Positions 7,940 through 59,610 of a stretch of DNA of 64,000 nt are shown here, one piece after another. The stretch is from assembly GCA_009842325.1 (NCBI GenBank), contig VYFQ01000003.1:113459-177458 (forward strand), read 5' to 3'. The stretch's first letter is position 1. The number at the start of each line of letters is the position of its first letter. The position numbers were made by a program, and so were the translations under genes. The stretch comes from Acidimicrobiaceae bacterium (lineage in GTDB: Bacteria > Actinomycetota > Acidimicrobiia > Acidimicrobiales > Aldehydirespiratoraceae). The notes below the pieces were generated by a model. It did not search any database, was not told the DNA's origin, and was given only the letters and a program-made list of their open reading frames with translations.

Positions 7940-7964
7940 CGTGGTGTGGGTCGGTCCCTGGCGT

Positions 7965-36329: not shown

Positions 36330-36357
36330 CCGGCGTCGCAGGACCGGGGCGGCGCCG

Positions 36358-39812: not shown

Positions 39813-40729
39813 CATCCCCACACGAGATACTAGAAGAGATCGACAGCCGCCTACCTGAGGCGCTGACCCTTACGGTGGGCCGGTTGGTAGGCGACGCCAT
39901 CGAAGCGCGACACCTAGCACTCGACGTTGACGCGGCAGACAGCTTCCGCGAGCAGTGCTACATCGCTTGCGAGCACATTCGGGCGGGGAGTGCTGCGTCA
40001 TACACGGCGTCAGCCGAACTAGATGCAGGCGAGTACTACGTAATCGACGACGACGAGACACTGGACGAGCTCGGCGAGTTCCGGCGCTTGGCCGACAATC
40101 TGGGAGCGATTCCTCAGATCTCTGCCAACGAGCTCGATTTGACGATCAGGCTCTACTCCGTCGCCGTGGGAAACGAATTCAGCCGGATCCTCTTCGTCAG
40201 GAGCACCAATCCTCAGCTGGCCCACAAGGCCGGAAAATTCTGGGCCATGGGCCAAGAACGGCTCACTCGTATCGATGGGCCTGTCTTCGCATTCTCCGCT
40301 GGCTTCGACTTCGTTCTCGGGCCAAGCTGGGCAGTTGTGCTACACCAGAGATCGTTTGAGATGCTATTCCGGCAGATCGGTCTCGTGGAGCAACACGTCT
40401 CGACTTGGATCAAGGGAATCACCGACCACCTCTCCATGAGTGAGTCGAGCATCAGCGGCCTTCGCGACGTTGCACTGCGGGATTCCCGAACGTGGCGGCG
40501 GCTGCGTGACATCGAGCGTCGGCGCCACCTTGCAGACGTCACGCTAGATCAAGTGGCTGCGTATGCGGGGGAGATCGGCCTCGACCCGGGGAAGGTCGTG
40601 GTCGATGGGGAACTCGTGTTCGATCCCGCCGAGCGGTTCGGCTTCCTCCATCTGCTCAACGAAGATCTGTACAAGGGTCCGCTCACCGGCGAGGCGTTCG
40701 AGTCGCAGCGCAAGTCGGCGATGAGTTGA
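39809..40729 (+). CDS. kwaB: DUF4868/KwaB-like protein (Kiwa)
   Basis: 306-aa soluble protein coupled to the 4-TM protein. Its size, its context in a defence island and segments such as FDFVLGPSWAVVLHQRSFEMLF are consistent with my memory of the DUF4868 family. Not verified by search. Confidence 0.5.
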   Translation: MTSPHEILEEIDSRLPEALTLTVGRLVGDAIEARHLALDVDAADSFREQCYIACEHIRAGSAASYTASAELDAGEYYVIDDDETLDELGEFRRLADNLGAIPQISANELDLTIRLYSVAVGNEFSRILFVRSTNPQLAHKAGKFWAMGQERLTRIDGPVFAFSAGFDFVLGPSWAVVLHQRSFEMLFRQIGLVEQHVSTWIKGITDHLSMSESSISGLRDVALRDSRTWRRLRDIERRRHLADVTLDQVAAYAGEIGLDPGKVVVDGELVFDPAERFGFLHLLNEDLYKGPLTGEAFESQRKSAMS

Positions 40730-42488: not shown

Positions 42489-42607
42489 ACGGCAGTCGAT
42501 TCTGCTGGCGGGATCGATGCGGCGCAATGATGCGGATTGCGTCGCGGCCGGACTGTGCTGCTGGATCGGATGGAACCCATGGCCGACGCAGCCGCTGAAG
42601 GCGACAG

Positions 42608-45600
42608 ATGACAACGCTTGAGCAAGAGCGGGCTGTTGTCGTGCCGGAGCAGGGGAACCTAGTGAGGGCGCGCGACCGGTACTGGGTGGTGGAGTCGGTG
42701 CGCCAATCGGCGCGCCCGGTGGACCCGATGAGCTCCGACGGCTGGGCCCGGCATCACCTCGTAACTCTGGTCCCGATTGACGACAAGGGCAGTTCGTCGC
42801 CGTTGAGCGTGTTCTGGGAGACCGAGCCGGGCACGGAGATTCGGCCGCAGTCCGAGCTTCCGAACCCGGCTGATGGTCTCGACACCCCGGAGGTGTTCGC
42901 TGGGTTCTTGGATGCGGTGCGATGGGGCGCGATCGCCTCGGCTGACCCGCAGGCGTTCCAGTCACCGTTCCGAGCCGGCATCGACATCGAGGACTACCAA
43001 CTGCTGCCGTTGGTCAAGGCGCTGCGCATGCCTCGGGTCACGTTGTTGGTCGCTGACGATGTCGGGTTGGGCAAGACCGTGGAGGCGGGCCTGATCGCGC
43101 AGGAGTTGGTGCTGCGCAACCAGGCCAACAGGATCCTGGTGGTGTGCCCGCCGAGCCTGTGCGGCAAGTGGCAGCGCGAGATGAGAGAGCAGTTCGGTCT
43201 CAGTTTCGAGGTCGTCGACACCGACCATGTACGACAGCTACGCCGCCAACGAGGGGTCGCGGTGAACCCGTTCCGGTCCCATCCCCGGCTGATCGTTTCG
43301 ATGGAGTGGGTCAAGTTTGAGTCCCAGATGCGCTGGTTCGACGAGTTCCTGCCCCCTGACCCCAACGTGTTCCCCCGGGCGTTCGATCTGCTGATCGTGG
43401 ACGAGGCCCACCGCATCGCGCCGTCAGCGGTGGGGCGTTACGCCCGGGACTCATTGCGGACCCAGGCGATGAAACGCCTGGCGCCGCATTTCGAGCATCG
43501 GCTGTTCTTGACGGCTACGCCCCACAACGGCTATCCCGAGTCGTTCCAGGCGCTGTTGGAGATGCTGGACCCCAACCGGTTCACCAAGGGCGTGGAACCC
43601 AGGCGGCGAGACCGCGAAGCGGTGATCGTGCGCCGTCTGAAGTCGCATCTCCGGACGATGCTGCCCGACGGCGACAAGCGGTTCCCGAAGCGCAGGATCG
43701 AAGCCATCGAAGTGGAGTTCCCGCCCGAGGAGCAGGAGCTGTTCACCCTTCTGGACGGCTACTTGGATCTGCGGATGGGTTCAGCGGCCACCCCGGCGGA
43801 GAGGACGGCGTCACGGTTCATCGCGCTGCTGCTCAAGAAACGGCTGCTGTCGTCGCCGGCCGCGTTCAAGCACACCTTGGACCAGCACATCCGCACCCTA
43901 AACGCCGCGTCGCGCTGCGGGGTCGCCGAGACGGTGATACGGGACGCCGCGGCCGCGGTGGAGGACAGCGCGGACGACAGCGAGGTGGTGTCCGAACAAG
44001 AGCAGGAGGCTCTGGCGCTCGCCGCGGACGCGCTCGACAGCATCGATCCCGAACGCGAGCAGGAACTGCTGGCGAGAATGCGCGCCCGGACCGTGCACAT
44101 CGATGCTGCCGCCCCGATCCTGGATCAGATGTGGACTATGGCCGACCAGAGGTGGCGCAGAGCCGACGCGAAGACGCGGCGGCTCGCGGACTGGATCGCG
44201 GATACCTGCTTCACCGAGGGTGAATGGAACAACGAGCGGGTCATCGTGTTCACCGAGTACCGGGCCACCCTCAACTATCTCGACGAGATCCTCGCCGCGC
44301 CGCGTGACGGCTGGCCCGACACCACCGGACGTGTCGAGGTGTTCCACGGAGGGCTCGACAGCGAAGAGCGCGAGCGGATCATCAGAGAGTTCAACTACAA
44401 CCCGGCCAAGACCAGAGTGCGGGTGCTGCTCGCCACCGACGCCGCGTCTGAGGGCATCGACTTGCATCGGGCCTGTCACCGGCTCGTGCATATGGAGGTC
44501 CCGTTCAACCCGAACCGGATGGAGCAGCGAAACGGCCGGGTGGACCGCCACGGCCAGAAGTCCGGCACAGTCGACATCTTCCATTTCGCGTCACCCGGCG
44601 GCGAAGACGACAGTGCCAGCCACGATCACTCTTTCCTGCTGCGCGTCGCGGAGAAGGTCGACGACATCAGAGACGATCTCGGGTCGATGGCTTCGGTGCT
44701 TGCTGAGCGGGTCGAGGCTCGCATGCTGCGACAGGGCGACGACAGCCTCGACCTCGAGGATGTGGTCGAGGAGCGCCGGAACCAGGCCCGCGTCAGCCTG
44801 GTGCAACTCAAGCAACGGTTCGCGCAGGACATCATCGATGTGCGCGACAAGTACAGCACCAGCGTCAAGGAGCTCGACCTCACCCCGGCCAGCGTGCAAC
44901 GCGCGGTGGAGGTCGCGTTCCGTATCGAGGGTCAGCCGCCGCTTCGGGAAGCAGCCCTCGCACGCGGCGACACCACGGTGAGGGTGTTCGAGGTCGACGA
45001 CCTGGCCGGCACCTGGGGCGAGACCCTCGTCGGTTTGCGCAACGAAGTCGAGGACGTGCGCCTGCCGGTGACCTTCGACCCTGCGGTGGCCCAAGGCCAA
45101 CAGGATGTCGCCTATCTGCATGTGGGGCATCCGCTGGTGGCGCGCTGTCTGCGCACCCTGCGGGCCCAGGTGTGGGGCGCGGCCGTGGACCGCAAGATCA
45201 ACCGGGTGGCGGTCCGTTACGCCGAGGTGGCCGAGCCGGTCGCGGTCGCGCACGCCCGGGTGGTGGTCAACGGCTCCGACGGGTCCACCCTCGACGAGGT
45301 CATAGAACCCGCCGCGGTGCGTGTCGGCGGTGGCCAGGGACGCCTCAACGTCGGCGAGACCCGCTCGGCGGTGGCGTCGGCAAGCTCCCAAGAGGTGCCC
45401 GCAGCACAACAGGGCCTATATGTGGACCAGTGGCCGCGGCTCAAGAAGCCGCTTCAGAAGGCGCTGGCCGCCCGCGCTTCCGAAGTTCTCGACCAGCGCA
45501 GCCGCGCCATGGACGCCAAACGCGACACCGAAGAGAAGCGCCTGCGTGGAACACTCCAGGACCTCAGAGCAAGCATCCTGCGCCGCCTCGACGAACTACA

Positions 45601-45811
45601 AGAATCAGAAACCGTCGAACAGTTGCGCCTGTTCGACGACGACGAGCACCGCCAGATCCAAGCCGACATCCAGGCGCTGCGCGACCGGGCCGAACGCATC
45701 GGCGACGACATCGAAAAGGAAGCGGAGATCCTGCAGCGCCGCTACGAGGTCCGAGACGTCAACTGGTTCCCCGTCGCCGTCGAGTTCCTAATCCCCAGAG
45801 GGCAGGTCTGA
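42608..45811 (+). CDS. drmD: DISARM class 1 SNF2-family helicase
   Basis: ADDVGLGKTVEAG (motif I), LLIVDEAHRIAP (DEAH), LTATPHNG (III), LLATDAASEGIDLH (V), QRNGRVDRHGQ (VI). Confidence 0.85.
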   Translation: MTTLEQERAVVVPEQGNLVRARDRYWVVESVRQSARPVDPMSSDGWARHHLVTLVPIDDKGSSSPLSVFWETEPGTEIRPQSELPNPADGLDTPEVFAGFLDAVRWGAIASADPQAFQSPFRAGIDIEDYQLLPLVKALRMPRVTLLVADDVGLGKTVEAGLIAQELVLRNQANRILVVCPPSLCGKWQREMREQFGLSFEVVDTDHVRQLRRQRGVAVNPFRSHPRLIVSMEWVKFESQMRWFDEFLPPDPNVFPRAFDLLIVDEAHRIAPSAVGRYARDSLRTQAMKRLAPHFEHRLFLTATPHNGYPESFQALLEMLDPNRFTKGVEPRRRDREAVIVRRLKSHLRTMLPDGDKRFPKRRIEAIEVEFPPEEQELFTLLDGYLDLRMGSAATPAERTASRFIALLLKKRLLSSPAAFKHTLDQHIRTLNAASRCGVAETVIRDAAAAVEDSADDSEVVSEQEQEALALAADALDSIDPEREQELLARMRARTVHIDAAAPILDQMWTMADQRWRRADAKTRRLADWIADTCFTEGEWNNERVIVFTEYRATLNYLDEILAAPRDGWPDTTGRVEVFHGGLDSEERERIIREFNYNPAKTRVRVLLATDAASEGIDLHRACHRLVHMEVPFNPNRMEQRNGRVDRHGQKSGTVDIFHFASPGGEDDSASHDHSFLLRVAEKVDDIRDDLGSMASVLAERVEARMLRQGDDSLDLEDVVEERRNQARVSLVQLKQRFAQDIIDVRDKYSTSVKELDLTPASVQRAVEVAFRIEGQPPLREAALARGDTTVRVFEVDDLAGTWGETLVGLRNEVEDVRLPVTFDPAVAQGQQDVAYLHVGHPLVARCLRTLRAQVWGAAVDRKINRVAVRYAEVAEPVAVAHARVVVNGSDGSTLDEVIEPAAVRVGGGQGRLNVGETRSAVASASSQEVPAAQQGLYVDQWPRLKKPLQKALAARASEVLDQRSRAMDAKRDTEEKRLRGTLQDLRASILRRLDELQESETVEQLRLFDDDEHRQIQADIQALRDRAERIGDDIEKEAEILQRRYEVRDVNWFPVAVEFLIPRGQV

Positions 45812-48800
45812 TGGCGGCAAGCCGCCGCGTCGCCGCGCAGCACGAGGACTGGCTAAACCTCACCGACGCCGAGCCGCCTTGGTTCTCGCTGCCAGCGATG
45901 CGGCGAGCGATGCCCGACGGGCTAGATCCGACACCGCCGCATGTGCGGGCCGAGCACAAGGCCCGCTGGCACAGCCACAACGGCACCGACCCGACACGTC
46001 TCGCGTCTGATCGCCGCGGCTACATCGACTGGCTGCTGTGCGACGTGCTGGGCTGGGCCGGCCATTACCTAAGCGGCGATCAGCTGCCGGCAGCCTTCTC
46101 CGCGGCCGTCACACGCCACGACGTCACCATCGAACCCACCGGCGTGTACCAGCCGGATCCCCCAGTGCCGGTAGGGCTGCTCGACCAGCCCGAACCCGAA
46201 CCCGCGGCAGGGTCTGGCGAACCGCGGGTGCTGGTGTTCGTGCTGGCCGCCGGCACCGACCCCCGCCAGCGACCCACCGGCGACACCTGGCCAGCGACAT
46301 GGGTGCAACGCGCCGCGCTGTCATGCCGCCATCACCAGGTCCCGCTCGCGCTGGTCACCGACGGAGACCACTTCACCCTCGTGCACGCACCAGAGCGCGG
46401 CGCGACCGGATGGGGCACCTGGCGCGCTTCGGAATTCGCGTCCGAGCCGGTGCTGCTGGACTCCTTCGTGTCGATCCTGCGCTCGCGGCGCTTCATCGGC
46501 GCATCGCTACAGAACACACCAGAGGCACTGCTTGTCGAGTCGGCCAGCACCCAAGCCGAGGTCACCGACCGGCTCGGCACCCAGGTCCGTCAAGCCGTCG
46601 AACTCCTCGTGAACGCAATCTCGCGGGCCGATCGCTCCCGCAGCGGAGTGCTGCTGGCCGGTGTCGGCCCGCACGAGGTCTACGAAGCGGCCGTCACCGT
46701 GATGATGCGAACCGTGTTCCTGCTCGTGGCCGAAGAGAACGACCTGTTGCCCATCGACAATCCCCACTACCGGGACCTGTACTCGATACGCATCCTGCGC
46801 GAGACCCTCGAACAGGACCAGTTCGAGCACCCCGAGGCTCTCGAGACCCGCACCACGGCCTGGCATCGGCTGCTGGCCACCAGCCGGGCCGTTCACAGCG
46901 GCATCCACCACGAAGAACTGTCGGTGCCCGCCTACGGCGGCAGCCTCTTTGATCCCGACCGGTTCCCGTTCCTGGAAGGCCGTAACACCGACAGCACCTG
47001 GACCGCCAACCCCGGCGCACCCATCGCGGTGACCGACCTCGACGTGCTCGCCATCTTGGACTCGCTGCTCGTGTTGCACTTCCGCGACCACAGCGGCGCC
47101 GCCGACACCCGACGCCTGTCGTACCGCAACGTCGACGTCGAACAGATCGGCCACATCTACGAACGGCTCCTGGACCACGACGCCGTCACCGCCGACAGCG
47201 TCGTTCTCGGACTTGTCGGCAAACCCGGCGAAGAACCCGAGATACCCCTGCCGGAGCTCGAACTCAGGATGCTGTCGGGCAGCTCGCGGCTCGTTGCGTG
47301 GCTCAGCGACCAGGACGCCGCCAAAGCCGGCCGAAAGGCGGGCACCCGCCGACAGGTAGAGAAACTCCTCGCAGAACCCGCCGACGGTCGCCTGCGGGCC
47401 GGGCTGCTGCAAGCTTGCCAAGGCGACCAGGCGCTGTTCGAGCGCATCGAACCGTTCGCGGGGCTGCTGCACCTGGACCTGCGCGGACGGCCGCTGGTGT
47501 TCCTCCCCGGCGACGTGTACGTCACCGAGACCGGATCCCGCCGCGACAGCGGCACCGCCTACACCACCCGAGAACTTGCCGACGAAGTCGTCGAGCACGC
47601 CCTAGCCCCGTTGTGCTACTCGCCCGGACCGCAAGACACAGCCGACACCACCAAATGGCGTATCCGCGAACCAGACGAGATCCTCAATCTCAACGTGTGC
47701 GACCCCGCTGTCGGTTCTGGGGCGATCCTCGTGGCCGCCTGCCGCTATCTCGCTGAGCGGCTCATCGAAGCATGGAGCGCACAAGGCGACCCGCGCGCCG
47801 CCGACACGGCTACCGCAGCCGACGACCCGAACCGGCTAGATATCGTCGTCGAGGCCCGCCGCATGGTCGCAGAACGCTGCTGCTACGGCGTTGACCGCAA
47901 CCCCATGGCCACAGAGATGGCCAAACTGTCGATGTGGCTGACCACAGTGGCCAAGGACCGGCCCTTCACGTTCCTAGACCACGCCATCAAGTCAGGCGAC
48001 AGCCTGCTGGGTATCCACAATCTGAGCCAGTTGCGCCACCTGCATTTCGACCCGGCATCCGGCAAGGCACGGCCCACACCGATCTCGGGATTCCAGAGCG
48101 GCGGCGAAGCCGCCGAGGAGGTTCAGCGTCTCATCAATCAGGCAGTCGAGCTAAGACGCGCCATGCACAGCATCGAGACCATCGGCCTCGCCAACGTCGA
48201 AGAGAAGCAGGACCTCCACCACCAGAGCGAACAACACCTGACGGCGCTCAACGCGATCGCTGACGTGCTCGCAGGCGCAGCACTGTCCACCGCCGGCGAA
48301 ACAGACCCCGACACGGCGCTCACCAGCCGGCTCGAGGCCGACGCGGCGGCCATAGTCGGACTCGTCGAAGCGCTAGACACACCCGAGCAGGCACCGGCGC
48401 TCGACAGTGCCCGCAGCCGGGCCCGTCGCCGCCTCGACGCCAGCCGCCCCGACAGCGCCCCGCCGCGGCACCCGCTGCACTGGCCCATCGCCTTCCCCGA
48501 AGTAATCAACAGGTCCAGTCCGGGCTTCGACGCGATTGTCGGCAACCCCCCGTTCCTCGGCGGGCAGCGCATTACCGGTGCTGCAGGCACCGACTACCGT
48601 AACCATCTCATCGCTTGGACCGCCAACGGTGCCAGAGGCTCAGCAGACCTCGTCGCCTACTTCTTCCTGAACGCCGCCAAGATCGCCCGATCACTCGGCT
48701 TCCTGGCCACCAACACCATCGCACAAGGCGACACCAGCGAAGTCGGCCTGACCCAGATCATCGACAACGGATGGACCATCCACCGCGCCGTGTCATCAAC

Positions 48801-49986
48801 CACCTGGCCTGGTGACACCAGCCTCGAGATAGCCAAAGTCTGGGCCACCAGCCACCCATGGAACGGCAAACGAATGCTCGACGGAAGACACGTCGCAGAG
48901 ATAGACGAGATGCTCTACCCGGTGCCAGAATCGGGGCACCGCAAGAAACGCCTCGCCGCCAACGCCGACAAGTCCTTCCAAGGCTCCATCGTGCTCGGAG
49001 CGGGTTTCATAATGAGTCACAAAGAAGCGCAGAGGCTCATAGCCAAGAATCCCCGCAACGGAGACGTGTTGATGCCCTATCTCGGCGGAGAGGACCTCAA
49101 CAAGTCGCCCACCCAGGAGGCGTCCAGGTCGATCATCAACTTCCACGACTGGCCTAAGGAGAAGGCCGAAGATTATCCCGACTGCTTCGCCATCGTGGAA
49201 CAGAAGGTCAAGCCCATTCGCCAGGAGCGTAAGCCGAACGGCGACTTCAAGAAGCGCAAGCCGCTGCCGCAGCTCTACTGGATCTACGCCGAGAAACGTC
49301 CAAAGCTGTATCGCACGATCAAGCCGTTGGAGAGGGTGCTGGCGATCTCAAGAGTGAGCAAGACCGTCCAGCCCGTATTCGTTCCGCCTGGGCAGGTACT
49401 GGCAGACTCGACAGTCGTATTCGCGTACGACGACGACTTCCATTTCGGGGTACTGACATCGGGGTTCCACTACCGCTGGGCCGTACGCCATGGCTCCACA
49501 CTGGAGACCCGAGTGCGGTACACGCCGTCGGACGTGTTCGAGACGTTCCCACAGCCGCCGGTCGCCGACGAGGTGGCATCCACCGGGCAGGTTCTCGATC
49601 TGCACAGGTCGAAGCTGATGCTCAGCCGCGATCTGGGGTTGACCAGCGTCTACAACCTCGTCCACGACCCCGAGGTGGACGAGGACGGGGACATCGAGCG
49701 GCTCCGATCCCTGCACATCGAGTTGGATCTGGCGTTGCGGGACGCCTATGGATGGTCCGAGGTGGAGTTGGAGCACGACTTTTACCCCGTGCGCGGCCAA
49801 GGAGTGCGGTTCACGTTCTCCCCTCGGGCCGCTGGCGAGGTGCTGGACCGGCTGCTGGAGCTGAACAAGGAACGATATGAGGCTGAGACCGCGGCGGGGC
49901 TGCACGAGTCGGCGACGGCGAGGAGGCTGAAGGCCACCGAGAAGGTTGCTGCTGGTCAGGGGTCGCTGTTGGGGGATGACCGGTGA
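45811..49986 (+). CDS. drmMI: DISARM class 1 N6-adenine DNA methyltransferase (type IIG/Eco57I-like)
   Basis: ATG at 45811 overlaps the drmD TGA by 1 nt. VCDPAVGSGAIL (SAM motif I) and AIVGNPPFLGG (NPPF motif IV). 1391 aa. The ORF-track extension from 45172 overlaps drmD and is rejected. Confidence 0.85.
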   Translation: MAASRRVAAQHEDWLNLTDAEPPWFSLPAMRRAMPDGLDPTPPHVRAEHKARWHSHNGTDPTRLASDRRGYIDWLLCDVLGWAGHYLSGDQLPAAFSAAVTRHDVTIEPTGVYQPDPPVPVGLLDQPEPEPAAGSGEPRVLVFVLAAGTDPRQRPTGDTWPATWVQRAALSCRHHQVPLALVTDGDHFTLVHAPERGATGWGTWRASEFASEPVLLDSFVSILRSRRFIGASLQNTPEALLVESASTQAEVTDRLGTQVRQAVELLVNAISRADRSRSGVLLAGVGPHEVYEAAVTVMMRTVFLLVAEENDLLPIDNPHYRDLYSIRILRETLEQDQFEHPEALETRTTAWHRLLATSRAVHSGIHHEELSVPAYGGSLFDPDRFPFLEGRNTDSTWTANPGAPIAVTDLDVLAILDSLLVLHFRDHSGAADTRRLSYRNVDVEQIGHIYERLLDHDAVTADSVVLGLVGKPGEEPEIPLPELELRMLSGSSRLVAWLSDQDAAKAGRKAGTRRQVEKLLAEPADGRLRAGLLQACQGDQALFERIEPFAGLLHLDLRGRPLVFLPGDVYVTETGSRRDSGTAYTTRELADEVVEHALAPLCYSPGPQDTADTTKWRIREPDEILNLNVCDPAVGSGAILVAACRYLAERLIEAWSAQGDPRAADTATAADDPNRLDIVVEARRMVAERCCYGVDRNPMATEMAKLSMWLTTVAKDRPFTFLDHAIKSGDSLLGIHNLSQLRHLHFDPASGKARPTPISGFQSGGEAAEEVQRLINQAVELRRAMHSIETIGLANVEEKQDLHHQSEQHLTALNAIADVLAGAALSTAGETDPDTALTSRLEADAAAIVGLVEALDTPEQAPALDSARSRARRRLDASRPDSAPPRHPLHWPIAFPEVINRSSPGFDAIVGNPPFLGGQRITGAAGTDYRNHLIAWTANGARGSADLVAYFFLNAAKIARSLGFLATNTIAQGDTSEVGLTQIIDNGWTIHRAVSSTTWPGDTSLEIAKVWATSHPWNGKRMLDGRHVAEIDEMLYPVPESGHRKKRLAANADKSFQGSIVLGAGFIMSHKEAQRLIAKNPRNGDVLMPYLGGEDLNKSPTQEASRSIINFHDWPKEKAEDYPDCFAIVEQKVKPIRQERKPNGDFKKRKPLPQLYWIYAEKRPKLYRTIKPLERVLAISRVSKTVQPVFVPPGQVLADSTVVFAYDDDFHFGVLTSGFHYRWAVRHGSTLETRVRYTPSDVFETFPQPPVADEVASTGQVLDLHRSKLMLSRDLGLTSVYNLVHDPEVDEDGDIERLRSLHIELDLALRDAYGWSEVELEHDFYPVRGQGVRFTFSPRAAGEVLDRLLELNKERYEAETAAGLHESATARRLKATEKVAAGQGSLLGDDR

Positions 49987-52900
49987 CCGAGTCGTATGGG
50001 TCACTGTCTGATCGCAGCGCGTGGGGTCTGAGAGCAGAGCTCGTGGCTCGCGTCACTGCAGATTTGATGGGTCCGCTGGAGGGCGACACCGAGGTGATCG
50101 AGGGATATCAGAAGGTTGACGGCAACTGGTCGCCTCCGGGGCGGGTGCGGGACCGGTATCTGGTGGGGATGCTGGCCCCCAAGGGCACCGTCGCGGTTGA
50201 TCCTGAACGCGACGACGACGTCGGCCCCGAGGAGGGCGACGACGCCGCCGACGGCGGTGTGCAGGACGGGCGCAGCCCCAGGATGGTGCTGGCGCAGTCG
50301 TCGATGGGCCTGTCGGTGGTGGTCGACGCGTCTGTTGAGAGTCTGGTCGCTCGCTGTCGTTGGGGTCAGTACGACAAGGAGTCCCGACAGCGCGATGACG
50401 GTTCCCGAGCGTCGGTTTGGGTTCGTCGCCCGGTACAGGTCGACGTGCCAGTCGCGTTGGCGGAGGGCGAGTTCGGGCGTATGGATGTCGACGGCGAGGG
50501 GATCGCGCTGAGGGGCCGGGCCACCCGCTCGGGTGGCGGGTTGTGGCTGGTGACGGTGTTCTTGTCCAATGAACGTGAGCAAGCCGAGCGAAACAGGGAC
50601 AGCCGATGGATGTTCCAGGCCGGGCTTGAGCTGTTCGCAGTCGACGGCGCGGCGGTGTTCTTGGGCCGTGATGGGATTCTGGTGGAGGCTGCGGCTGCTT
50701 CGCAGTGGGAGCGCGACGAGGTGGCGCAACTTGATTTGCAGTACCGCGACACTGTGGAGTTCGCGGTCGGTCACGGCGTCGGCACGGACGTGGAGGTGTC
50801 TGCTTCGGATCCGCGGCGGGCCGTACGGGCCGCTACTGCAGTCATCCCCAGCTATGAGGTTTGGCGCACCGACGCGCCGCGTGCCGAGACGACTCCGCAG
50901 CTGGCCGGGCTGGTGACCGACATGAAGAAGCTGTCGGAACTGGATCCCGATGGTCTGCGGGCGGCGCTGTTGCCGCTGTCGGAGGGATACCGGCAGTGGT
51001 TGGACACCGAAGCGGCCCGCATTGATGACCCTGCGGCGCGTCTTGAGGGCCATGAGCAGGCCGCCCGAGCCGCGATCGGTCAGGCCCGGCAGATGGCTGA
51101 CGCCATTGAGGTGGGAATCGAGATGGTTTGTTCGGACGTCGACGCGTTGGAGGCGTTCCGGTTCGCGAATGAGGCGATGCGTCTGCAGCGTGTCCACACA
51201 GTCGCCATTGAGGCCAGGCGCCGAGATCCCGAGCTGGGGCTGCGGGACGCTGTCGAGGCTGCCGATGTGCCCGAGAACCGGTCTTGGCGGCCGTTCCAGC
51301 TCGCGTTCATCTTGTTGTGCGTGCCGTCGCTGAGCGACGCTGCGCACGCCGAGCGATCCCACGACGACGCGTTGGCTGACTTGTTGTTCTTCCCGACCGG
51401 CGGCGGCAAGACCGAGGCGTATCTGGGGTTGGTGGCTTTCACGCTGGCCACCAGGCGGCTCCAGGGCGTTGTCGGTGAGGGCGAGGCGGCGGTTGACGGA
51501 CGCGACGGGGTGGCGGTGCTGATGCGGTACACGCTGCGACTGCTGACTGCTCAGCAGTTCCAGCGTGCCGCGACGTTGATGTGCGCGGCAGAACTGCTGC
51601 GCCAGGCTCGCGCCGACAGAGACGACCGCTATGGGGGTGTGCCGTTCCGGCTCGGGATGTGGGTCGGGGCTTCGGTGACTCCCAACAAGGCCCGCGACGC
51701 GGAGCGCTTCGCGCAAGACGCTCGTGTGGGGGGTTACAGCGGTGGCCAGTCGACCCCGATTCAGCTCAGCGACTGTCCGTGGTGCGGTACCAGCATCGAC
51801 GCCGGAACCGACTGCCGCTACGACGAGGCACTCGAACGGTTCTTGGTGTTCTGCGGCAACGCCCAGGAGTGCGCGTTCACCGAGGCGCACACGTCTGGTG
51901 AGGGGCTCCCCGTCGTCACAGTCGATGAGGAGATCTACCGGCTGGTGCCGTCGTTCGTCATTGGCACCGTCGACAAGTTCGCGCAGCTTCCCTGGAACGG
52001 CGCCACCTCCACGCTGTTCGGCCAGGTCGAGTCTCGCTGTGAACGCCACGGCTACCGCAACGCCGACCTTGATCGTTCCCACCGGTCGCATTGGCAAGAA
52101 CGGGACTCTCACATGCCCCTTGACGGCCATCCCGCGGCCCGCACCGTGCCGTCTGGACGGCTACGTCCGCCTGACCTGATCATCCAGGACGAGATGCATC
52201 TGGTGACCGGACCGCTGGGAACGATGGCCGGGCTGTATGAGACCGCAATCGACCGGCTCGCCACCTGGAACTATGAGGGGAAGCCGGTACGGCCGAAGGT
52301 GGTCGCGTCGACCGCCACGACCCGCAGAGCCCGCCAGCAGGCATGGTCGGTGTTCTGGCGCAAGCTGCGGGTGTTCCCGCCTCCGGTCGTGGACGTGCAC
52401 CGGTCGTTCTTCGCTGAGCAAACCCAGCCCAGCCCCCAAAGCCCAGGACGTCTGTACCTGGGGGTCTGCGCGCACGGCGAACGCCTCAAGCAGGTCGAGC
52501 TGCGGGTGTTCTCCTCGGTGATGGCCGCCGCCAAGGCCATCGCCGACGAACTCGGCGACGACGCCGCGGCGGCCGATCCGTGGATGACCACCGTCGGGTA
52601 CTTCAACGCGGTGCGCGAGCTCGCCGGGATGCGCCGCATGGCCGAGGACGAACTCCGCACCAAACTCCGCCGGAGCAGGTTCACGCCCGGCCTGGCGAAC
52701 CGTCCCAGCGTGGAGCTCAAAGAACTCACCTCACGGGTGTCCTCTGACGACATTAAAGCGATCCTGCGCCAGCTGTTCATCACCCATGATCCCGACCGGT
52801 CCACCGACAGCGAACGGCCCATCGATTTGCTGTTGGCGACCAACATGATCTCGGTGGGTGTGGACGTGCCCCGCCTCGCTTCGATGGTCGTCGTCGGCCA

Positions 52901-53624
52901 GCCCAAGGCCACCGCCGAGTACATCCAAGCCACCTCCAGAGTCGGCCGAGACCCCAAAGGCCCGGGTCTGGTCATCACGCTCTACAACTGGGCTCGGCCC
53001 CGGGACCTGTCCCACTACGAGACGTTCAGCCACTACCACGCCACCTTCTACCGTCACGTCGAGCCGCTGTCCGTCACCCCGTTTTCAGAACGTGCGCTCG
53101 ACAAAGGACTCACCGGGGTACTCGTGTCGGCGGTCCGCCACGCCGATCACGACTGGAACCCCAACCCGTCGGCCCGCAACCTCAACCGCCCCGATCCGCG
53201 CATCGCCGCGCATGTCGACGCCATCGCGCAGCGGGCCGGGTCCGTGACCGGTGACCAGAAGGCCTCTGCGCTGGCGGCCAACATGGCCAACGACCGCCTG
53301 GACGCCTGGCATCGCCAGACCGCGCTGCGGCCCCAGCTGTCATACGCGGAGCGCACCTCTGACGATGTGGCGCTGCTGTGCAGGCCGGAGGCCGGCGACT
53401 GGGAAATGTGGACGTGCCCCAACTCGCTTCGCGACACCGAAGTGCAAGCCAACCTCCAGATAGTCACAGAAGATCCCGGCTACGAGTCCGGCGCCCACCC
53501 CGAGATCGTCCTGGGCCAGACAGCACACACCGAACGCACAGCCACCGTCGACGACGAAGAAGTGGAAGACGCGATCGAAGCCGACGAGGCCGAGGCCCAA
53601 GCCGCCCGAGGGGCCCGCTCATGA
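49983..53624 (+). CDS. drmA: DISARM helicase-domain protein
   Basis: GTGA overlap with drmMI. FFPTGGGKTEAYLGL, IIQDEMHLV (DExH), VASTATTRRA, LLATNMISVGVDVPRL, QATSRVGRD. Confidence 0.85.
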   Translation: MTESYGSLSDRSAWGLRAELVARVTADLMGPLEGDTEVIEGYQKVDGNWSPPGRVRDRYLVGMLAPKGTVAVDPERDDDVGPEEGDDAADGGVQDGRSPRMVLAQSSMGLSVVVDASVESLVARCRWGQYDKESRQRDDGSRASVWVRRPVQVDVPVALAEGEFGRMDVDGEGIALRGRATRSGGGLWLVTVFLSNEREQAERNRDSRWMFQAGLELFAVDGAAVFLGRDGILVEAAAASQWERDEVAQLDLQYRDTVEFAVGHGVGTDVEVSASDPRRAVRAATAVIPSYEVWRTDAPRAETTPQLAGLVTDMKKLSELDPDGLRAALLPLSEGYRQWLDTEAARIDDPAARLEGHEQAARAAIGQARQMADAIEVGIEMVCSDVDALEAFRFANEAMRLQRVHTVAIEARRRDPELGLRDAVEAADVPENRSWRPFQLAFILLCVPSLSDAAHAERSHDDALADLLFFPTGGGKTEAYLGLVAFTLATRRLQGVVGEGEAAVDGRDGVAVLMRYTLRLLTAQQFQRAATLMCAAELLRQARADRDDRYGGVPFRLGMWVGASVTPNKARDAERFAQDARVGGYSGGQSTPIQLSDCPWCGTSIDAGTDCRYDEALERFLVFCGNAQECAFTEAHTSGEGLPVVTVDEEIYRLVPSFVIGTVDKFAQLPWNGATSTLFGQVESRCERHGYRNADLDRSHRSHWQERDSHMPLDGHPAARTVPSGRLRPPDLIIQDEMHLVTGPLGTMAGLYETAIDRLATWNYEGKPVRPKVVASTATTRRARQQAWSVFWRKLRVFPPPVVDVHRSFFAEQTQPSPQSPGRLYLGVCAHGERLKQVELRVFSSVMAAAKAIADELGDDAAAADPWMTTVGYFNAVRELAGMRRMAEDELRTKLRRSRFTPGLANRPSVELKELTSRVSSDDIKAILRQLFITHDPDRSTDSERPIDLLLATNMISVGVDVPRLASMVVVGQPKATAEYIQATSRVGRDPKGPGLVITLYNWARPRDLSHYETFSHYHATFYRHVEPLSVTPFSERALDKGLTGVLVSAVRHADHDWNPNPSARNLNRPDPRIAAHVDAIAQRAGSVTGDQKASALAANMANDRLDAWHRQTALRPQLSYAERTSDDVALLCRPEAGDWEMWTCPNSLRDTEVQANLQIVTEDPGYESGAHPEIVLGQTAHTERTATVDDEEVEDAIEADEAEAQAARGARS

Positions 53625-55483
53625 GCCCGGCACGCAGAGGCCAGTACCAGTCGCGGCGCGTCGGCGGTGTGCGCCCGTCGCAGATGATCCACACCTACGG
53701 CCCCGGAGCGGTCATGGACCTGCCCCAGCTTTCGGTGGTGCTCACCGGCACAGACCAGTGGAAGCTCGAGCACACCGAACGGATCCTCGAGCCGCGGCTG
53801 ATCGGCGCGGTGCGCTCAGTGCCCGGCTGCCACCGCGTCGCGGAGTTTCGCACCCCGCCCTGGCAAGAGGAAACGTCCAACCCGTTCGACGAATGGGCCC
53901 GCATCGGTGTGCCGGTGCATCCGTTCCCGAGATGGCTGCGCTGCACCCAGTGCGACCTGCTGGCACCGGTTGACCGGCACAGGTTCCGGCTTGATGTGCC
54001 CGTCTTCAGGCCCGACAAGGCCCGCTACTTCCACGATCGCTGCCACAGCCGCCGCCCCAGCGCGGTGCCGGCCCGGTTCTTGATCGCCTGCGCCGCTGGG
54101 CATCTCGACGACTTCCCCTGGGAGCAGTACACCCACCGCGGCGCTCCCTGCGCCGACGCGCCGGTGCTGGAGCTCAAAGAGGTGGGAAGAGCCAGCCGAG
54201 CCACCGACGTGCGCGTCGTGTGCAAGGCCTGCGGCGCCAACCGCGTTGTGCACGACGCGTTCGGTCCCGAAGCCGACGCCCATCTGCCGCGCTGCCGGGG
54301 CAGGCACCCCCACCTGCAACGCTTCGACCCGACCTGCGATCAGCCCACACGTGCGCTGCTGCTGGGCGCGTCCAACGCCTGGTTCGCGGTCTACCGGTCA
54401 GCTTTGACGATCCCGACCGTGAGCGGCGCCATCGCACAGAAAGTCGTAGAGCACTGGGACCTTCTCGAAGACATCGAAGACCGCGCAGAGTTCGACTTCA
54501 TCATCAAACGCCTGACCAAGGGCGCAGGCGAGAAGCCGCTGCGGTGGCTGCTGCGCTATGACCCCGACGACGTGTGGACAGCCATCAGCGATCGCCGCGA
54601 CGGCGAAGACACCGGAACCGGCCTAGCCGCTGGCGATCTGCGCGGACCCGAATGGGAGGCGTTCACCGCGGCCGTGCCCCCGCAGTCCGACGACTTCAAA
54701 GTCACAGCACTGTCTGTCCCCAGCGGGTTCAACATGACCCTCGGACATCCCGTCGCGGTCGACCGGCTGCGCGAAGTGCAAGCGCTGTGCGGGTTCACCC
54801 GCATCGACGGTCCCGACGAAGCCGATCCGGCCCGGATCGCGCCGATCTGGAAGGACCCCCAGCCGTGGCTTCCCGCTGCTGAGGTCCGCGGCGAGGGGAT
54901 CCTCATCACACTTCCCGAGAACCGGGTCGAGCAATGGGAACGCGACTACCGAGAAAGCAGCCGCTACCAGCACCTGCAGCAAGCCACCCGCAACTGGCGC
55001 ACCCGACGCCGACTGGAACCCGACGACAGTGCGACACCCCCGCCGCGGTTCGTGCTGCTGCACACATTGTCGCATCTGCTCATCAACCAGGTAGCGCTCG
55101 ACTGTGGCTACTCCACCGCGTCGATCCGCGAGCGCCTCTACTGCCGCGAGTCAGGCCACCCCGACGGAGCGCCGATGGCGGGAGTTCTGCTGTACACCGC
55201 GGCCCCCGACTCCGAAGGCACCCTGGGCGGCCTGGTTGCCCTCGCCGAACCAGCCCGGCTGGCTGCGGCGCTCAGGGACTCTCTCAACCGGGCCAAGCTC
55301 TGCTCCACCGACCCCATGTGCTCCGACCACCACGCCGGAGACCTCGGCGACACGCTCCACAACGCCGCCTGCCATGCGTGCCTATTCGCGCCAGAAACAT
55401 CCTGCGAATCGGGCAACCGCTATCTCGACCGGGCCGCCGCGGTACCGATCCTCGGTCACCCACAGGACGCCTACTTCACATGA
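53621..55483 (+). CDS. drmB: DISARM DUF1998 protein
   Basis: ATGA overlap with drmA. Cys clusters (LRCTQCD, VVCKACG) and the C-terminal signature AACHACLFAPETSCESGNRYLDR typical of DUF1998. Confidence 0.8.
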   Translation: MSPARRGQYQSRRVGGVRPSQMIHTYGPGAVMDLPQLSVVLTGTDQWKLEHTERILEPRLIGAVRSVPGCHRVAEFRTPPWQEETSNPFDEWARIGVPVHPFPRWLRCTQCDLLAPVDRHRFRLDVPVFRPDKARYFHDRCHSRRPSAVPARFLIACAAGHLDDFPWEQYTHRGAPCADAPVLELKEVGRASRATDVRVVCKACGANRVVHDAFGPEADAHLPRCRGRHPHLQRFDPTCDQPTRALLLGASNAWFAVYRSALTIPTVSGAIAQKVVEHWDLLEDIEDRAEFDFIIKRLTKGAGEKPLRWLLRYDPDDVWTAISDRRDGEDTGTGLAAGDLRGPEWEAFTAAVPPQSDDFKVTALSVPSGFNMTLGHPVAVDRLREVQALCGFTRIDGPDEADPARIAPIWKDPQPWLPAAEVRGEGILITLPENRVEQWERDYRESSRYQHLQQATRNWRTRRRLEPDDSATPPPRFVLLHTLSHLLINQVALDCGYSTASIRERLYCRESGHPDGAPMAGVLLYTAAPDSEGTLGGLVALAEPARLAAALRDSLNRAKLCSTDPMCSDHHAGDLGDTLHNAACHACLFAPETSCESGNRYLDRAAAVPILGHPQDAYFT

Positions 55484-56262
55484 ACGACTCCCTCACCGAC
55501 GCGATCGCCGACGCCGCTCTCCACATCCCCGGACAACACCTCGTAACGGCTGCCGCAGCGATCCAAGACTTCCCTCGATGCTCACCGGAATCTCAAGCAG
55601 CGCTGATCAACGTCATCCCCGCCTCCAACTACCGCAGGCACGCGACAACCATCGCCCAAGCCTGGAATGACCGCTCCGGCTTGGCCGGGGCGGCGGTGGC
55701 GGCAGCCCTACGTTCGGCAGCCGCGACCGCTGCGGCCGCCCGGGCCGAGCACGCTGCCAGCCTGGTGTGGACGGGACCCACCACAGAGGTCACCGGCCTG
55801 CGTGCCACCCGCTCAGTGCTCGACGAGCTCGTGGCCAACGCCACCCGCAGCCTCGTGCTGGTGTCGTTCGTCAGCTACGACGTCGCCGAACTCACCGAGA
55901 GCCTCGCTAACGCCATCGCGCGAGGGGTAGATGTGACACTCATCCTCGAAACCCCTGACGACCCTGGCGGTCCGCTCACAGTCGACACCGACCACCCATT
56001 CAAGCCGATCAAGGCAACCGCAAGCTTCTACCGATGGCCCTCAGAAGCCCGTGAGGTATTCTTCGCGTCGACGGCCCGTCTCCATGCAAAATGCGTAATC
56101 GCCGACCGCTCGGCTGCGTTGATCACTAGCGCGAACCTCACCAGCGCCGGCATCAACGACAACATCGAGCTGGGCGTCTTGATCGAAGCAGGTCCGCTAC
56201 CGATCAGGCTCAGCCGTCATCTAGACCTCCTAATCGAGCAGGGGATACTGGAACCAGCCTGA
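55480..56262 (+). CDS. drmC: DISARM phospholipase-D-family nuclease
   Basis: ATGA overlap with drmB. HxK motif LHAKCVIADRSAALITSANLTSAG. Confidence 0.85.
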   Translation: MNDSLTDAIADAALHIPGQHLVTAAAAIQDFPRCSPESQAALINVIPASNYRRHATTIAQAWNDRSGLAGAAVAAALRSAAATAAAARAEHAASLVWTGPTTEVTGLRATRSVLDELVANATRSLVLVSFVSYDVAELTESLANAIARGVDVTLILETPDDPGGPLTVDTDHPFKPIKATASFYRWPSEAREVFFASTARLHAKCVIADRSAALITSANLTSAGINDNIELGVLIEAGPLPIRLSRHLDLLIEQGILEPA

Positions 56263-56312: not shown

Positions 56313-58514
56313 TCAGTCTTGCAGTTGGCCCTCCGACGCTTCCGGTAGCTCAAAACAGTCGAGTGCGCCATAAAGTACATCGCTGGGTTCATCGCTATAG
56401 AGGACGTAAAGGCGGTCTCGGGCTCGCGTCATCGCGACGTACAGTTGGCTAAGTTGAAGGGCCTGCCGTTCCTTGTGTTCTGTCTCTGACTGTCCAGCAA
56501 GTTGTCTCAACGGGAAGGACGATGCGGATAGGTCCAGCAGGAACACAACCTTGAACTCAAGCCCCTTGGATCGATGAAATGTTCCGAGCTTTATGAGCTG
56601 ATTGGGGCGGCCGTCAAACTCAGTGAGCTCTTGGCAACTGAGCCCTGAATTCGTAAGGATCGCCAAAGCATCCTTGACTCGGGAATTCGTAGAAGCGAAC
56701 ACGCCGATATCGCCGGGGGCTATTGACCCTGACTGCGCAAGCGTCCGAATCTGCTGGGCGACAAATTCTATCTGACCCCCATAGTTGCCAGCCTGTACGA
56801 GTAGCGGCTTCGCGCCGTCTCGACTGGTTTCGAACTCTGCATCTCCACGCGCGTACTCCTCGCCCAGATCGTCTACGACTTCAGAACCAGCGCAGGCCAT
56901 AGCCGTTTCGATGATGCTACGTGGGTTACGGTAATTCAAGCGGAGAACCGCGCTGTTTCCCTGTATATCTATGCCAGCCTGTCCCAGGGTATATCCCCCC
57001 GGGTAGACCTTCTGAGCGCCGTCCCCCACGATGAACAGTCCATCGGGCTGATTCTGCTCTTGGGAGCCTCGAATCAGAGCCAAGACCAGTTGCAGGCCAA
57101 CGAGTGTAAGATCCTGAGACTCGTCGACAATCGCTGCCCGATACCTTGGCATCGGGTCTTCGCGAGCTAAGTCTCGGGCCATTCGAACGACATCGGGAAA
57201 GTCAACGATGCCCGCATCAACTAGACGCTGGTCCCAGTCTTCTCGAAGCATCCATGCCTGCTGACGCATAGCAGTTGAGAAGGGAACCCGTCGTCCGGTT
57301 CTCCGTATTTCAAGATACTCCTCTAGCGAGCCAATACCGCGTCCCTTGATTACAGCTGTCACCTCATCACGCAAGTATCTTCTAGTAAGTGATGCCCTAT
57401 CGAGCGGTGATCCTCTTTGAACAACCTTCCTATATGCCTTTGCGAAGGCTGAATCAACCCTTCTTTGGTCGACGTAGGGCGTCTGGCCGGCTTCAACGCA
57501 TACACGTCGTGCGAGTCTGTCGATGTTGATGAACTCGACAGCGCCAGGCACGGAGGTAGGGAGTCTCGCGTAGAGGTTCTCGAGAACTGGGGGAAGGTTC
57601 CTGACGAAGGTTGTGAAGAGAATCGGTGCCCCAATCTCCGGTGGGGCTTCGGCTCGGCGCTTCGCCAAGGCAGCGGCCCGGTGAAGTGCGACCACGGTCT
57701 TGCCCGTACCAGCTGACCCTCGGACGCGAGCTGGACCGTTGAACCGCCGATCAACGAGCGCACGCTGATCGGGATGGAGGAAGATCATCCAGTCCTCGAT
57801 GGGCGCCTCCGCGAGACGACGAATCTCGTCGGGCGTCAGGACCGACGAGAGACCGGCCAATGCTCCCCGCTCAACGATCGCCCGCCGGAACCGCTCGTCA
57901 GCGTCGCTGTCTTCCTCCACTAGCTGACGCTGTCGCCATTCGCGTGGAGATACTTCACTGAGTTCGAGAACTTGGTTGAAGTGTTCCTCGGTGATGTCGG
58001 GCCATGCGTCGAGGAGGGTGTCAACTGTTGCAGTCCGGAGAATCTTCACTGCATCCGCATCGAATCCGGCTTCAGCAAGTTCCGTAGAACTCCAATGCTC
58101 AACTATTGAAGGCTCACTGTCATCTAGGACGCGCTGCGCTCTGACAGGCTGGTTCGCCAGAGGCTGCTCCTCTGATTCGGTTGCCACTTGCCTGACCTCA
58201 ATCAAGCCTGGGCTGCCCGCGAGGGGGGCGACAAACGCCGTGCGGTCGGCCAACTCGTAGATGTCGTCGTGGTAGCCAGCCCGAAGTAGAACGGATGTAG
58301 AGCCTTGGCGAGCGAGCAGGACCCGAATCTTCTGGGAGACTCGAATTGACCACAGTCGCTTACGGCCCGTGCCACCTTGCAGACGCTCAAGGTTCAATGA
58401 AGGAGTGGATGGATCTCTTGCGAACTGTTCTACTGCTCGCCAAACGCGTTGCGCGTCGCCTGGCTCGAGCTTCAGCGTTGATTGGAGAAACTGGGTATCA
58501 AGTGCGACGTCCAC
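56313..58514 (-). CDS. SF1 (UvrD/Rep-like) helicase with RelE/ParE-like N-terminal domain
   Basis: GTG start preceded by GGGAGG. N-terminal ~95 aa: KRLWSIRVSQKIRVLLARQGSTSVLLRAGYHDDIY (RelE/ParE-like beta-strand pattern). Walker A GSAGTGKT, Walker B AAIVDESQD, motif VI-like VAMTRARDRLYVLY. Confidence 0.8.
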   Translation of the reverse strand: MDVALDTQFLQSTLKLEPGDAQRVWRAVEQFARDPSTPSLNLERLQGGTGRKRLWSIRVSQKIRVLLARQGSTSVLLRAGYHDDIYELADRTAFVAPLAGSPGLIEVRQVATESEEQPLANQPVRAQRVLDDSEPSIVEHWSSTELAEAGFDADAVKILRTATVDTLLDAWPDITEEHFNQVLELSEVSPREWRQRQLVEEDSDADERFRRAIVERGALAGLSSVLTPDEIRRLAEAPIEDWMIFLHPDQRALVDRRFNGPARVRGSAGTGKTVVALHRAAALAKRRAEAPPEIGAPILFTTFVRNLPPVLENLYARLPTSVPGAVEFINIDRLARRVCVEAGQTPYVDQRRVDSAFAKAYRKVVQRGSPLDRASLTRRYLRDEVTAVIKGRGIGSLEEYLEIRRTGRRVPFSTAMRQQAWMLREDWDQRLVDAGIVDFPDVVRMARDLAREDPMPRYRAAIVDESQDLTLVGLQLVLALIRGSQEQNQPDGLFIVGDGAQKVYPGGYTLGQAGIDIQGNSAVLRLNYRNPRSIIETAMACAGSEVVDDLGEEYARGDAEFETSRDGAKPLLVQAGNYGGQIEFVAQQIRTLAQSGSIAPGDIGVFASTNSRVKDALAILTNSGLSCQELTEFDGRPNQLIKLGTFHRSKGLEFKVVFLLDLSASSFPLRQLAGQSETEHKERQALQLSQLYVAMTRARDRLYVLYSDEPSDVLYGALDCFELPEASEGQLQD

Positions 58515-59481: not shown

Positions 59482-59610
59482 ATGAGCAAATCCAAGCATT
59501 CGCCGAAGGTGTCGAAGGCGGGTAAGACCTTGGGCAGCCCCAAGAGCACTCCAGCGCAGAAGTCGAAGGCGGGCAAGACCTTGCAGGGCCACAAGGAGAA
59601 GCAGCACTGA
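59482..59610 (+). CDS. candidate 42-aa lysine-rich small protein
   Basis: Below the ORF-track length cutoff. AGGAGCAGGAGG precedes the ATG. MSKSKHSPKVSKAGKTLGSPKSTPAQKSKAGKTLQGHKEKQH contains an internal SKAGKTL repeat (a 22-bp DNA repeat with 1 mismatch). Confidence 0.4.
   Translation: MSKSKHSPKVSKAGKTLGSPKSTPAQKSKAGKTLQGHKEKQH

Follow-up and report, generated by a model that had tools for sequence, protein, structure and literature searches.

The five genes at positions 42608-56262 of a 64,000-nucleotide stretch of DNA from an uncultured Acidimicrobiaceae bacterium (assembly GCA_009842325.1, contig VYFQ01000003.1; the whole stretch is called the window below) very probably constitute a complete, sequence-intact class 1 DISARM anti-phage/anti-plasmid operon, situated within a horizontally acquired defence island. 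Judged by its profile matches, the locus is a canonical class 1 DISARM of the known short-DrmA form. An earlier note on this DNA had proposed the order drmD-drmMI-drmA-drmB-drmC for these coordinates and had called the system known rather than novel. Both statements are borne out by matches to PADLOC, Pfam and NCBIfam profiles, including the DISARM families of PADLOC and NCBIfam, and to the solved DrmAB structure, and by the gene order itself, drmD-drmMI-drmA-drmB(-drmC), which is kept in most of 67 related loci (given L numbers below). The genes and their junctions, the latter read from the sequence, are as follows:

42608..45811, + strand: drmD, SNF2-like helicase, 1067 amino acids
45811..49986, + strand: drmMI, MmeI/PglX-like N6-adenine DNA methyltransferase with target recognition domain, 1391 amino acids
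49983..53624, + strand: drmA, short-form DISARM superfamily 2 (YprA-family) helicase, 1213 amino acids
53621..55483, + strand: drmB, DUF1998/MZB protein, 620 amino acids
55480..56262, + strand: drmC, candidate single-HKD nuclease of the phospholipase D family, 260 amino acids
45809..45813, + strand: drmD/drmMI junction TGATG, stop and start sharing 1 nucleotide
49983..49986, + strand: drmMI/drmA junction GTGA, 4-nucleotide overlap
53621..53624, + strand: drmA/drmB junction ATGA, 4-nucleotide overlap
55480..55483, + strand: drmB/drmC junction ATGA, 4-nucleotide overlap

Gene assignments

The assignments draw on three independent profile libraries (PADLOC, Pfam and NCBIfam) together with homology to the solved DrmAB structure, and the five genes were recovered in the expected order with E-values ranging from 0 to 1e-64, which is far beyond chance. 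A PADLOC run, suggested by the earlier note, gave as best matches DrmD (1130 bits), DrmMI (1549 bits), DrmA (934 bits), DrmB (237 bits) and DrmC (215 bits). Pfam domains scoring above their gathering thresholds were SNF2-rel_dom, Helicase_C, MZB, PLDc_2, MmeI_Mtase/MmeI_TRD and Eco57I. Thus the SNF2, DUF1998 and phospholipase D domains, whose absence the earlier note would have taken as a refutation, were all detected above the Pfam cut-offs (PF00176 at 49.5, PF09369 at 39.3 and PF13091 at 51.9 bits).

For DrmD, the NCBIfam equivalog DISARM_DrmD (NF038317) scored 1094.7 bits (cut-off 610), with residues 13-1064 covering positions 2-1019 of the 1021 in the profile, and the Pfam matches were to SNF2-rel_dom (cut-off 24.9 bits) and Helicase_C (67.2 bits). 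DrmMI, for which NCBIfam holds no equivalog model, aligned with the PADLOC profile PDLC02643 (1548.8 bits) over residues 5-1378 and profile positions 4-1335 of 1347, and matched the Pfam families MmeI_Mtase (PF20473, 62.1 bits), Eco57I (PF07669, 54.2 bits) and MmeI_TRD (44.6 bits). DrmA scored 1272 bits (cut-off 950) against the short-form equivalog DISARM_DrmAS (NF038325), residues 17-1159 on profile positions 2-1164 of 1165, versus 644 bits against the long-form model DrmAL, the cut-off of which is 999; Pfam added Helicase_C (PF00271, 27.3 bits, cut-off 23.5), and the Serratia DrmA structure (PDB 7s9v_A) was matched at an E-value of 1.7e-257. DrmB matched the NCBIfam family DrmB_fam (NF038324) at 657.1 bits (cut-off 240), the Pfam family MZB (PF09369, formerly DUF1998; cut-off 24.2 bits) and Serratia DrmB (PDB 7s9v_B; E-value 2e-155, residues 13-619 on 8-616 of 619). 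Finally, DrmC matched the equivalog DISARM_DrmC_I (NF038319) at 215.9 bits (cut-off 133), the PADLOC profile at 215.4 bits over residues 3-259 (profile positions 2-252 of 253) and PLDc_2 in Pfam (cut-off 27 bits).

The proteins also carry the motifs expected of these families:

43064..43078, + strand: DrmD Walker A, GLGKT, residues 153-157
43400..43411, + strand: DrmD motif II, DEAH, residues 265-268
47695..47721, + strand: DrmMI S-adenosylmethionine-binding motif I, VCDPAVGSG, residues 629-637
48544..48555, + strand: DrmMI catalytic motif IV, NPPF, residues 912-915
50193..50294, + strand: DrmA acidic loop, predicted to be disordered, residues 71-104, at the place corresponding to the Serratia trigger loop
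51399..51413, + strand: DrmA Walker A, GGGKT, residues 473-477, invariant in 30 homologues
52188..52199, + strand: DrmA motif II, DEMH (DExH), residues 736-739
55301..55381, + strand: DrmB four-cysteine zinc site, C561, C567, C584 and C587
56083..56106, + strand: DrmC HKD motif, HAKCVIAD (HxKx4D), H202, K204 and D209

The NPPF methyltransferase and DExH helicase of the earlier note are therefore the proteins carrying NPPF at DrmMI residues 912-915 and DEMH at DrmA residues 736-739. The four DrmB cysteines align with C559, C565, C581 and C584 of Serratia, whose zinc-site residues are named in PMC9142583.

Operon structure

All five reading frames have lengths divisible by three and one terminal stop each, and the genes form a single cluster, all in one orientation, in which drmD and drmMI precede drmA-drmB-drmC. 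Across the 13.6 kb there is no frameshift or internal stop and each protein spans its family profile end to end, in agreement with the earlier note, which saw no frameshifts. We consider the operon sequence-intact because frameshifts are absent, profile coverage is full-length and the catalytic motifs are all present.

The 1- or 4-nucleotide overlaps were found at all four junctions exactly where the earlier note had placed them, and the junctions are also tight in relatives with 91-94% identity, as judged from the coordinates of tblastn high-scoring segment pairs rather than from sequence reading. Through such overlaps, translation of neighbouring genes is plausibly coupled and the stoichiometry of the subunits maintained. 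Of the earlier statement that all five genes are translationally coupled, the overlaps thus stand as directly read, while the coupling itself is what we infer from them.

Concerning the start codons, ATG at 42608 is the first possible start of drmD because of an in-frame stop at 42596, and GTG at 49983 is the first possible start of drmA because of an in-frame stop at 49977, 6 nucleotides 5' of it. The mechanically called open reading frames (ORFs) of drmMI, drmB and drmC open further upstream, at 45172, 53378 and 54934, respectively; these starts were rejected, as profiles and homologues align from the overlapping ones. We prefer the overlapping starts since, in the proteins they give, alignments to the family profiles and to the Serratia proteins begin at residues 3-17 and since purine-rich stretches precede the internal starts, with Shine-Dalgarno-like AGAGGG, GGGGGA, GAGGGG and AGGA lying 6-15 nucleotides 5' of the four. 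Antisense ORFs within the operon, such as one of 709 amino acids at 50001-52130 on the minus strand, were dismissed as high-GC artefacts, as they fail the coding signature in G+C content at third and second codon positions (GC3/GC2).

The methyltransferase DrmMI

Residues D631, G635, S636 and G637 of motif I and N912, P913 and F915 of motif IV were invariant among 25 DrmMI homologues. A profile built from these homologues matched MmeI (5HR4; E-value 1.9e-26) over the C-terminal half of the methyltransferase and the target recognition domain and, more weakly, the BREX protein BrxX (PglX/BrxX), on the strength of which we regard DrmMI as an MmeI/PglX-like single-chain enzyme. This homology predicts N6-methyladenine (m6A) on a single strand of an asymmetric motif. 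The N-terminal ~600 residues (45811-47610) are conserved across the 25 homologues as well, with no domain above threshold.

The short form of DrmA

An AlphaFold2 model of DrmA residues 1-480, computed from 30 sequences (mean predicted local distance difference test, pLDDT, 69), comprises an N-terminal element (residues 13-70), a disordered loop (71-104), a confident beta-sandwich (107-219) and a helical domain. The loop, with a pLDDT below 50, follows the VRDRYLVGMLAP motif and precedes the beta-sandwich domain, and residues 67-104 contain 11 D/E and 4 K/R. The conserved VRDRYLVG-LAP motif at residues 55-66 aligns to Serratia residues ~157-168, which places it just ahead of the Serratia trigger loop, residues 176-232 (PMC9142583). 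When the model was compared with the PDB by Foldseek, the only matches at an E-value of 0.001 or below were DrmA structures (7s9v_A/7s9w_A; 9e-32 for 7s9v_A).

The N-terminal domain of class 1 DrmA has been described as EVE-like (10.1101/2025.09.15.676423). A full EVE-like domain at the N-terminus of the window's DrmA was considered and rejected, as ahead of the loop the model contains only a single helix and some short strands and Foldseek returned no PUA/EVE match. Compared with Serratia, there are ~70 rather than ~175 residues ahead of the loop, and the loop itself measures ~34 rather than ~55 residues. According to the model, the short-form DrmA retains a loop, of reduced length, where Serratia has its trigger loop and is without most of the EVE-like N-terminal domain.

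This short DrmA is not unusual, and NCBI has a dedicated model for the short form. A homology search returned 7760 DrmA homologues at an E-value of 1e-10 or below; among the matches listed, down to ~50% identity, full-length homologues measure ~1170-1240 amino acids, and shorter entries cover the query partly. With five genes, no drmMII and no inserted genes, the window offers a clean minimal example of a short-DrmA locus, which could be compared with Serratia to learn what the N-terminal domain and the trigger loop do.

Proposed mechanism and comparison with known systems

If the locus works as its Serratia counterpart does, DrmMI would place m6A on an asymmetric host motif as a mark of self; the Serratia DrmMI methylates ACACAG. 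DrmA, a superfamily 2 ATPase, and DrmB, a zinc-binding DUF1998 protein, would form a heterodimer held in an autoinhibited state by the acidic loop of DrmA. Once the loop is displaced, DrmAB would load on invading single-stranded or 5'-overhang DNA, more strongly where the DrmMI motif is unmethylated, and its ATP-driven translocation would block replication of the invader, with the SNF2 protein DrmD and the phospholipase D nuclease DrmC acting as accessory components. Protection by DISARM is broad and depends on methylation only in part, and DrmC was dispensable in the systems studied.

The closest characterized system is the class 1 DISARM of Serratia sp. SCBI (7S9V/7S9W; Bravo et al. 2022, PMC9142583; Aparicio-Maldonado et al. 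2021, 10.1101/2021.12.28.474362), which has the same five gene families and, per the class 1 definition, a core triplet preceded by drmD and drmMI. Conserved between the two are the four cysteines of DrmB, the Walker A and DExH motifs of DrmA, the VRDRYLVG-LAP motif with a predicted disordered, acidic loop after it, and DrmMI as an NPPF adenine methyltransferase. Unlike Serratia, the host here is a high-GC actinomycete.

Several points weigh against this reading of the locus and its mechanism. The drmMII cytosine methylase that Serratia carries is absent in the window. The window's DrmA has 1213 amino acids versus 1325 in Serratia, where the protein fits the long form by size (the DrmAL profile has 1329 positions), and the two are ~33% identical over the N-terminal half. 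No short-form (DrmAS) class 1 system is known to us to have been studied functionally, and the mechanism is extrapolated from the Serratia class 1 system (PMC9142583; 10.1101/2021.12.28.474362); in Serratia itself, no deletion of an individual gene removed protection altogether, and DrmC was dispensable. A promoter and terminator scan of 42-57 kb, not built for Actinomycetota, returned counts equal to the shuffled expectation and was uninformative, and translational coupling is consistent with the overlaps from which it is argued. Lastly, the class 1 definition quotes PF13659 for drmMI (10.1101/2021.12.28.474362, citing Ofir et al. 2018), and this family was not matched by the Pfam scan, even at an E-value up to 1 on the methyltransferase half; the feature behind the accession, an N6-adenine methyltransferase, is clearly present in DrmMI by its motifs and homology.

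Assignments to class 2 DISARM and to BREX were tried as well and fail on the defining features. Class 2 shares the core drmA-drmB-drmC and has the C5-cytosine methylase drmMII (PF00145), with or without drmE, in the absence of drmD and drmMI; no class 2 marker is present here. Class 2 reportedly includes the system that Ofir et al. 2018 described from Bacillus paralicheniformis. In the window, PF00145 was not matched by any island ORF scanned, and the five class 1 genes fill all 13.6 kb. As for BREX, a scan of the island genes at 37.5-59.7 kb turned up neither of the partners PglZ and BrxC.

Relatives, annotation and transfer

Identical proteins are deposited in GenBank as MXZ95816.1 to MXZ95812.1, from the 'Acidimicrobiaceae bacterium' metagenome-assembled genome (MAG) GCA_009837475.1 (contig VXTL01000019.1, 344 kb), where they are named helicase, restriction endonuclease (MXZ95815.1, DrmMI), helicase, DUF1998 domain-containing protein and hypothetical protein. 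Later-annotated homologues carry the NCBI names 'DISARM system helicase DrmA' and 'DrmD'. Given the generic names of MXZ95812-MXZ95816, the annotation of the locus can be updated to class 1 DISARM; PADLOC, DefenseFinder or current PGAP would find this operon, and the significance of the result is mainly one of annotation.

The 67 related loci, identified by a genome scan, lie mostly in Acidimicrobiia MAGs and also in other phyla. The best relatives are Acidimicrobiales MAGs, in which DrmD, DrmA and DrmB are 91-94% and DrmMI and DrmC 84-89% identical to those of the window. None of the ten proteins flanking the operon in the window is conserved beside DISARM in the closest loci, L001 and L004. 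We take the operon to move as a unit because these flanking genes are not kept beside it.

Whole DISARM cassettes with 70-83% protein identity by gene (DrmA 75-79%) were also seen in MAGs of other phyla (L005, L024, L011 and L012), namely in a Dehalococcoidia bin (1.1 Mb contig), a Tepidiformaceae bin (3.3 Mb contig) and, on short contigs, Terriglobia and Gammaproteobacteria bins. Many relatives bear 'Poriferisocius' or sponge-type bin names; a literature search on DISARM in sponge symbionts found nothing specific. These cassettes suggest cross-phylum transfer of the operon within one habitat, with binning error possible for the short contigs. Near-identical cassettes in Actinomycetota, Chloroflexota and other phyla illustrate whole-operon transfer.

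Some relatives differ from the window at the drmMI/drmA junction. A UvrD-family helicase gene lies between these two genes in L014 (3294-5198), L015 (7195-9099) and L023 (4186-6090), and no drmC was detected in these loci. In L037 (Leptolyngbya), a UvrD-like gene at 7431-9539, the product of which is 28% identical to the window helicase described below, overlaps the start of drmA. Nine further loci (L007, L013, L016, L018, L022, L025, L027, L029 and L059) have 1-7 kb of other DNA at this junction, compared with the 4-nucleotide overlap in the window.

Alternative explanations

Beyond drmC lies a convergent pair of genes:

56313-58514, - strand: RelE-like/UvrD-GajB-like helicase fusion, 733 amino acids, PADLOC GajB 91 bits
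58542-59669, - strand: Abi_C protein, C-terminal Abi_C domain at 49.6 bits in Pfam, N-terminal part without match

The alternative that survives best, though we consider it unlikely, is that DISARM and this pair form one composite, ARMADA-type-II-like system, in which the toxin-helicase would be an added, possibly abortive effector. The GajB match of the helicase, together with its RelE-like residues 2-86 (PHROG 'RelE-like toxin' at an E-value of 3.7e-4, profile positions 4-87 of 88; a weak Pfam ParE_like match at 0.06), corresponds to the architecture of ArmD in ARMADA type II. That system shares BrxHII-like, PglX-like and YprA-like genes with class 1 DISARM, and its ArmD is a RelE-GajB fusion (10.1101/2025.09.15.676423). 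In addition, the stop codon of the helicase gene lies 50 nucleotides from that of drmC, and UvrD-type helicases recur in or beside related DISARM loci (L014, L015 and L023; L037; and, within 10 kb, L011, L050 and L064). However, the pair is on the opposite strand, the GC3 of the UvrD fusion is 0.59 versus ~0.8 for DISARM, and the flanking sequence available for L001 and L004, the closest relatives, lacks the pair, despite DISARM proteins that are 91-94% identical. Moreover, the window helicase has no close relative in the UvrD helicase inserted in L015 (no match at 1e-5), and defence genes cluster for reasons besides shared function. We are just as doubtful of the wider proposal that short-form DISARM, short of most of the EVE-like domain, recruits a UvrD-family helicase lying beside or within the operon as a sixth component, in the window the RelE-UvrD fusion with its Abi_C partner; on that view the locus would combine DISARM and ARMADA in one hybrid, with a toxin-based back-up arm.

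Membership in ARMADA type II proper was rejected. The likeness consists of a shared order in which a BrxHII/SNF2-like helicase comes first, a PglX-like methyltransferase second and a YprA-family helicase third, with an ArmD-like RelE-like/GajB-like helicase fusion adjoining the operon. The differences are that the YprA-family helicase is a DISARM_DrmAS equivalog and that separate drmB and drmC genes are present, whereas the paper on ARMADA type II names four genes, ArmA-D, without a DrmB or DrmC counterpart (10.1101/2025.09.15.676423, PMC13463889). ARMADA type II further requires a YprA-like helicase from the ARMADA/Druantia clade and, in strict order after it, a co-oriented ArmD, and the ArmD-like gene here is convergent, compositionally foreign and not kept in close relatives.

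Alternatively, the 1391-aa protein might be a self-contained type IIG/IIL (MmeI-like) restriction-modification enzyme and the real nuclease effector, with the other genes as helicase accessories, which we judge very unlikely. The protein does match the PADLOC profile REase_MTase_IIG (PDLC03618) over its full length at 816 bits, is homologous to MmeI over methyltransferase and target recognition domain, has a sub-threshold MmeI_N match at residues 157-267 and bears a restriction endonuclease name in GenBank. Nevertheless, DrmMI is by far the better match (1549 versus 816 bits), and the MmeI homology stops short of the N-terminal ~600 residues, where MmeI-family type IIL enzymes have a PD-(D/E)xK endonuclease domain and where no nuclease domain is supported here. 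The MmeI_N match reached 16.9 bits (cut-off 27) and was confined to the C-terminal half of the domain, a D...(D/E)xK triad was not seen by eye in the list of invariant or near-invariant columns for residues 1-250 of the 25 homologues, and the gene sits within the conserved five-gene DISARM order. Least likely of all is that the class 1 DISARM operon is a dead remnant that has lost function or expression: the source is a MAG and no sigma-70-like promoter was detected 5' of drmD by a scan not designed for Actinomycetota, yet the 13.6 kb contain no frameshift or internal stop, the catalytic motifs are intact, profile coverage is full-length and the junctions are tight in relatives.

Defence-island context

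The earlier note had seen the operon as the anchor of a defence island, which agrees with its Kiwa-like, GmrSD-like, RelE-UvrD and Abi_C neighbours and with the GC3 mosaic. The GC content of the window is ~0.70 and falls to 0.55-0.62 around 37-43 kb and 56-59 kb. The GC3 values are as follows:

Host genes: 0.88-0.95
DISARM genes: 0.75-0.85
Kiwa-like pair: 0.70-0.73
UvrD fusion: 0.59
orf366 (37522-38622): 0.58
GmrSD-like gene: 0.55, lowest of the island

The defence-island reading holds because the flanking defence genes each differ from the host in GC3. The GC3 values show the island to be a patchwork of modules, each acquired on its own. The ORFs scanned included no integrase or transposase, no convincing direct or inverted repeats bound the island at its flanks, and the window contains no tRNA or tmRNA genes and no Rfam families. 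On the left side of DISARM, the island comprises:

37522-38622: orf366, 366 amino acids, at the left island edge, no match in Pfam, PADLOC, PHROGs or NCBIfam
38694-39011: 105-amino-acid ORF, no match in Pfam, PADLOC or PHROGs
39024-39812: KwaA-like, PADLOC 56.8 bits, NCBIfam 45.4 bits (cut-off 100)
39809-40729: KwaB/DUF4868-like, PADLOC 23.8 bits, Pfam 16.6 bits (cut-off 26.3)
40788-42488: GmrSD-like DUF262 type IV restriction-like protein, Pfam GmrSD_N 103.7 bits, PADLOC HEC-05 165 bits, weak DUF1524

The first two are candidate defence or mobile-element genes. The next two, which overlap by 4 nucleotides, are tentatively a divergent or merely Kiwa-like system, as their scores are below the NCBIfam and Pfam cut-offs. 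The GmrSD-like gene ends 119 nucleotides 5' of drmD. Further left, outside the island, are an HTH (helix-turn-helix)-nucleotidyltransferase fusion (33509-34138), an NYN-domain protein (34869-35561, minus strand) and an ADP-ribosylglycohydrolase (36106-37290, with a host-like GC3 of 0.89), which may be toxin-antitoxin or defence neighbours, or simply host genes.

On the right side, the Abi_C gene is the immediate 5' neighbour of the RelE-UvrD gene, and the two probably make up one two-gene unit. The GenBank calls for the helicase (646 and 694 amino acids) trim part or all of the RelE-like domain, which the longest ORF (GTG at 58514) retains. Callers also differ on the start of the Abi_C gene (278, 313 or 375 amino acids), and its disputed 5' part contains an imperfect 41-nucleotide direct repeat (59504-59544 and 59555-59595; 51-nucleotide spacing, 78% identity).

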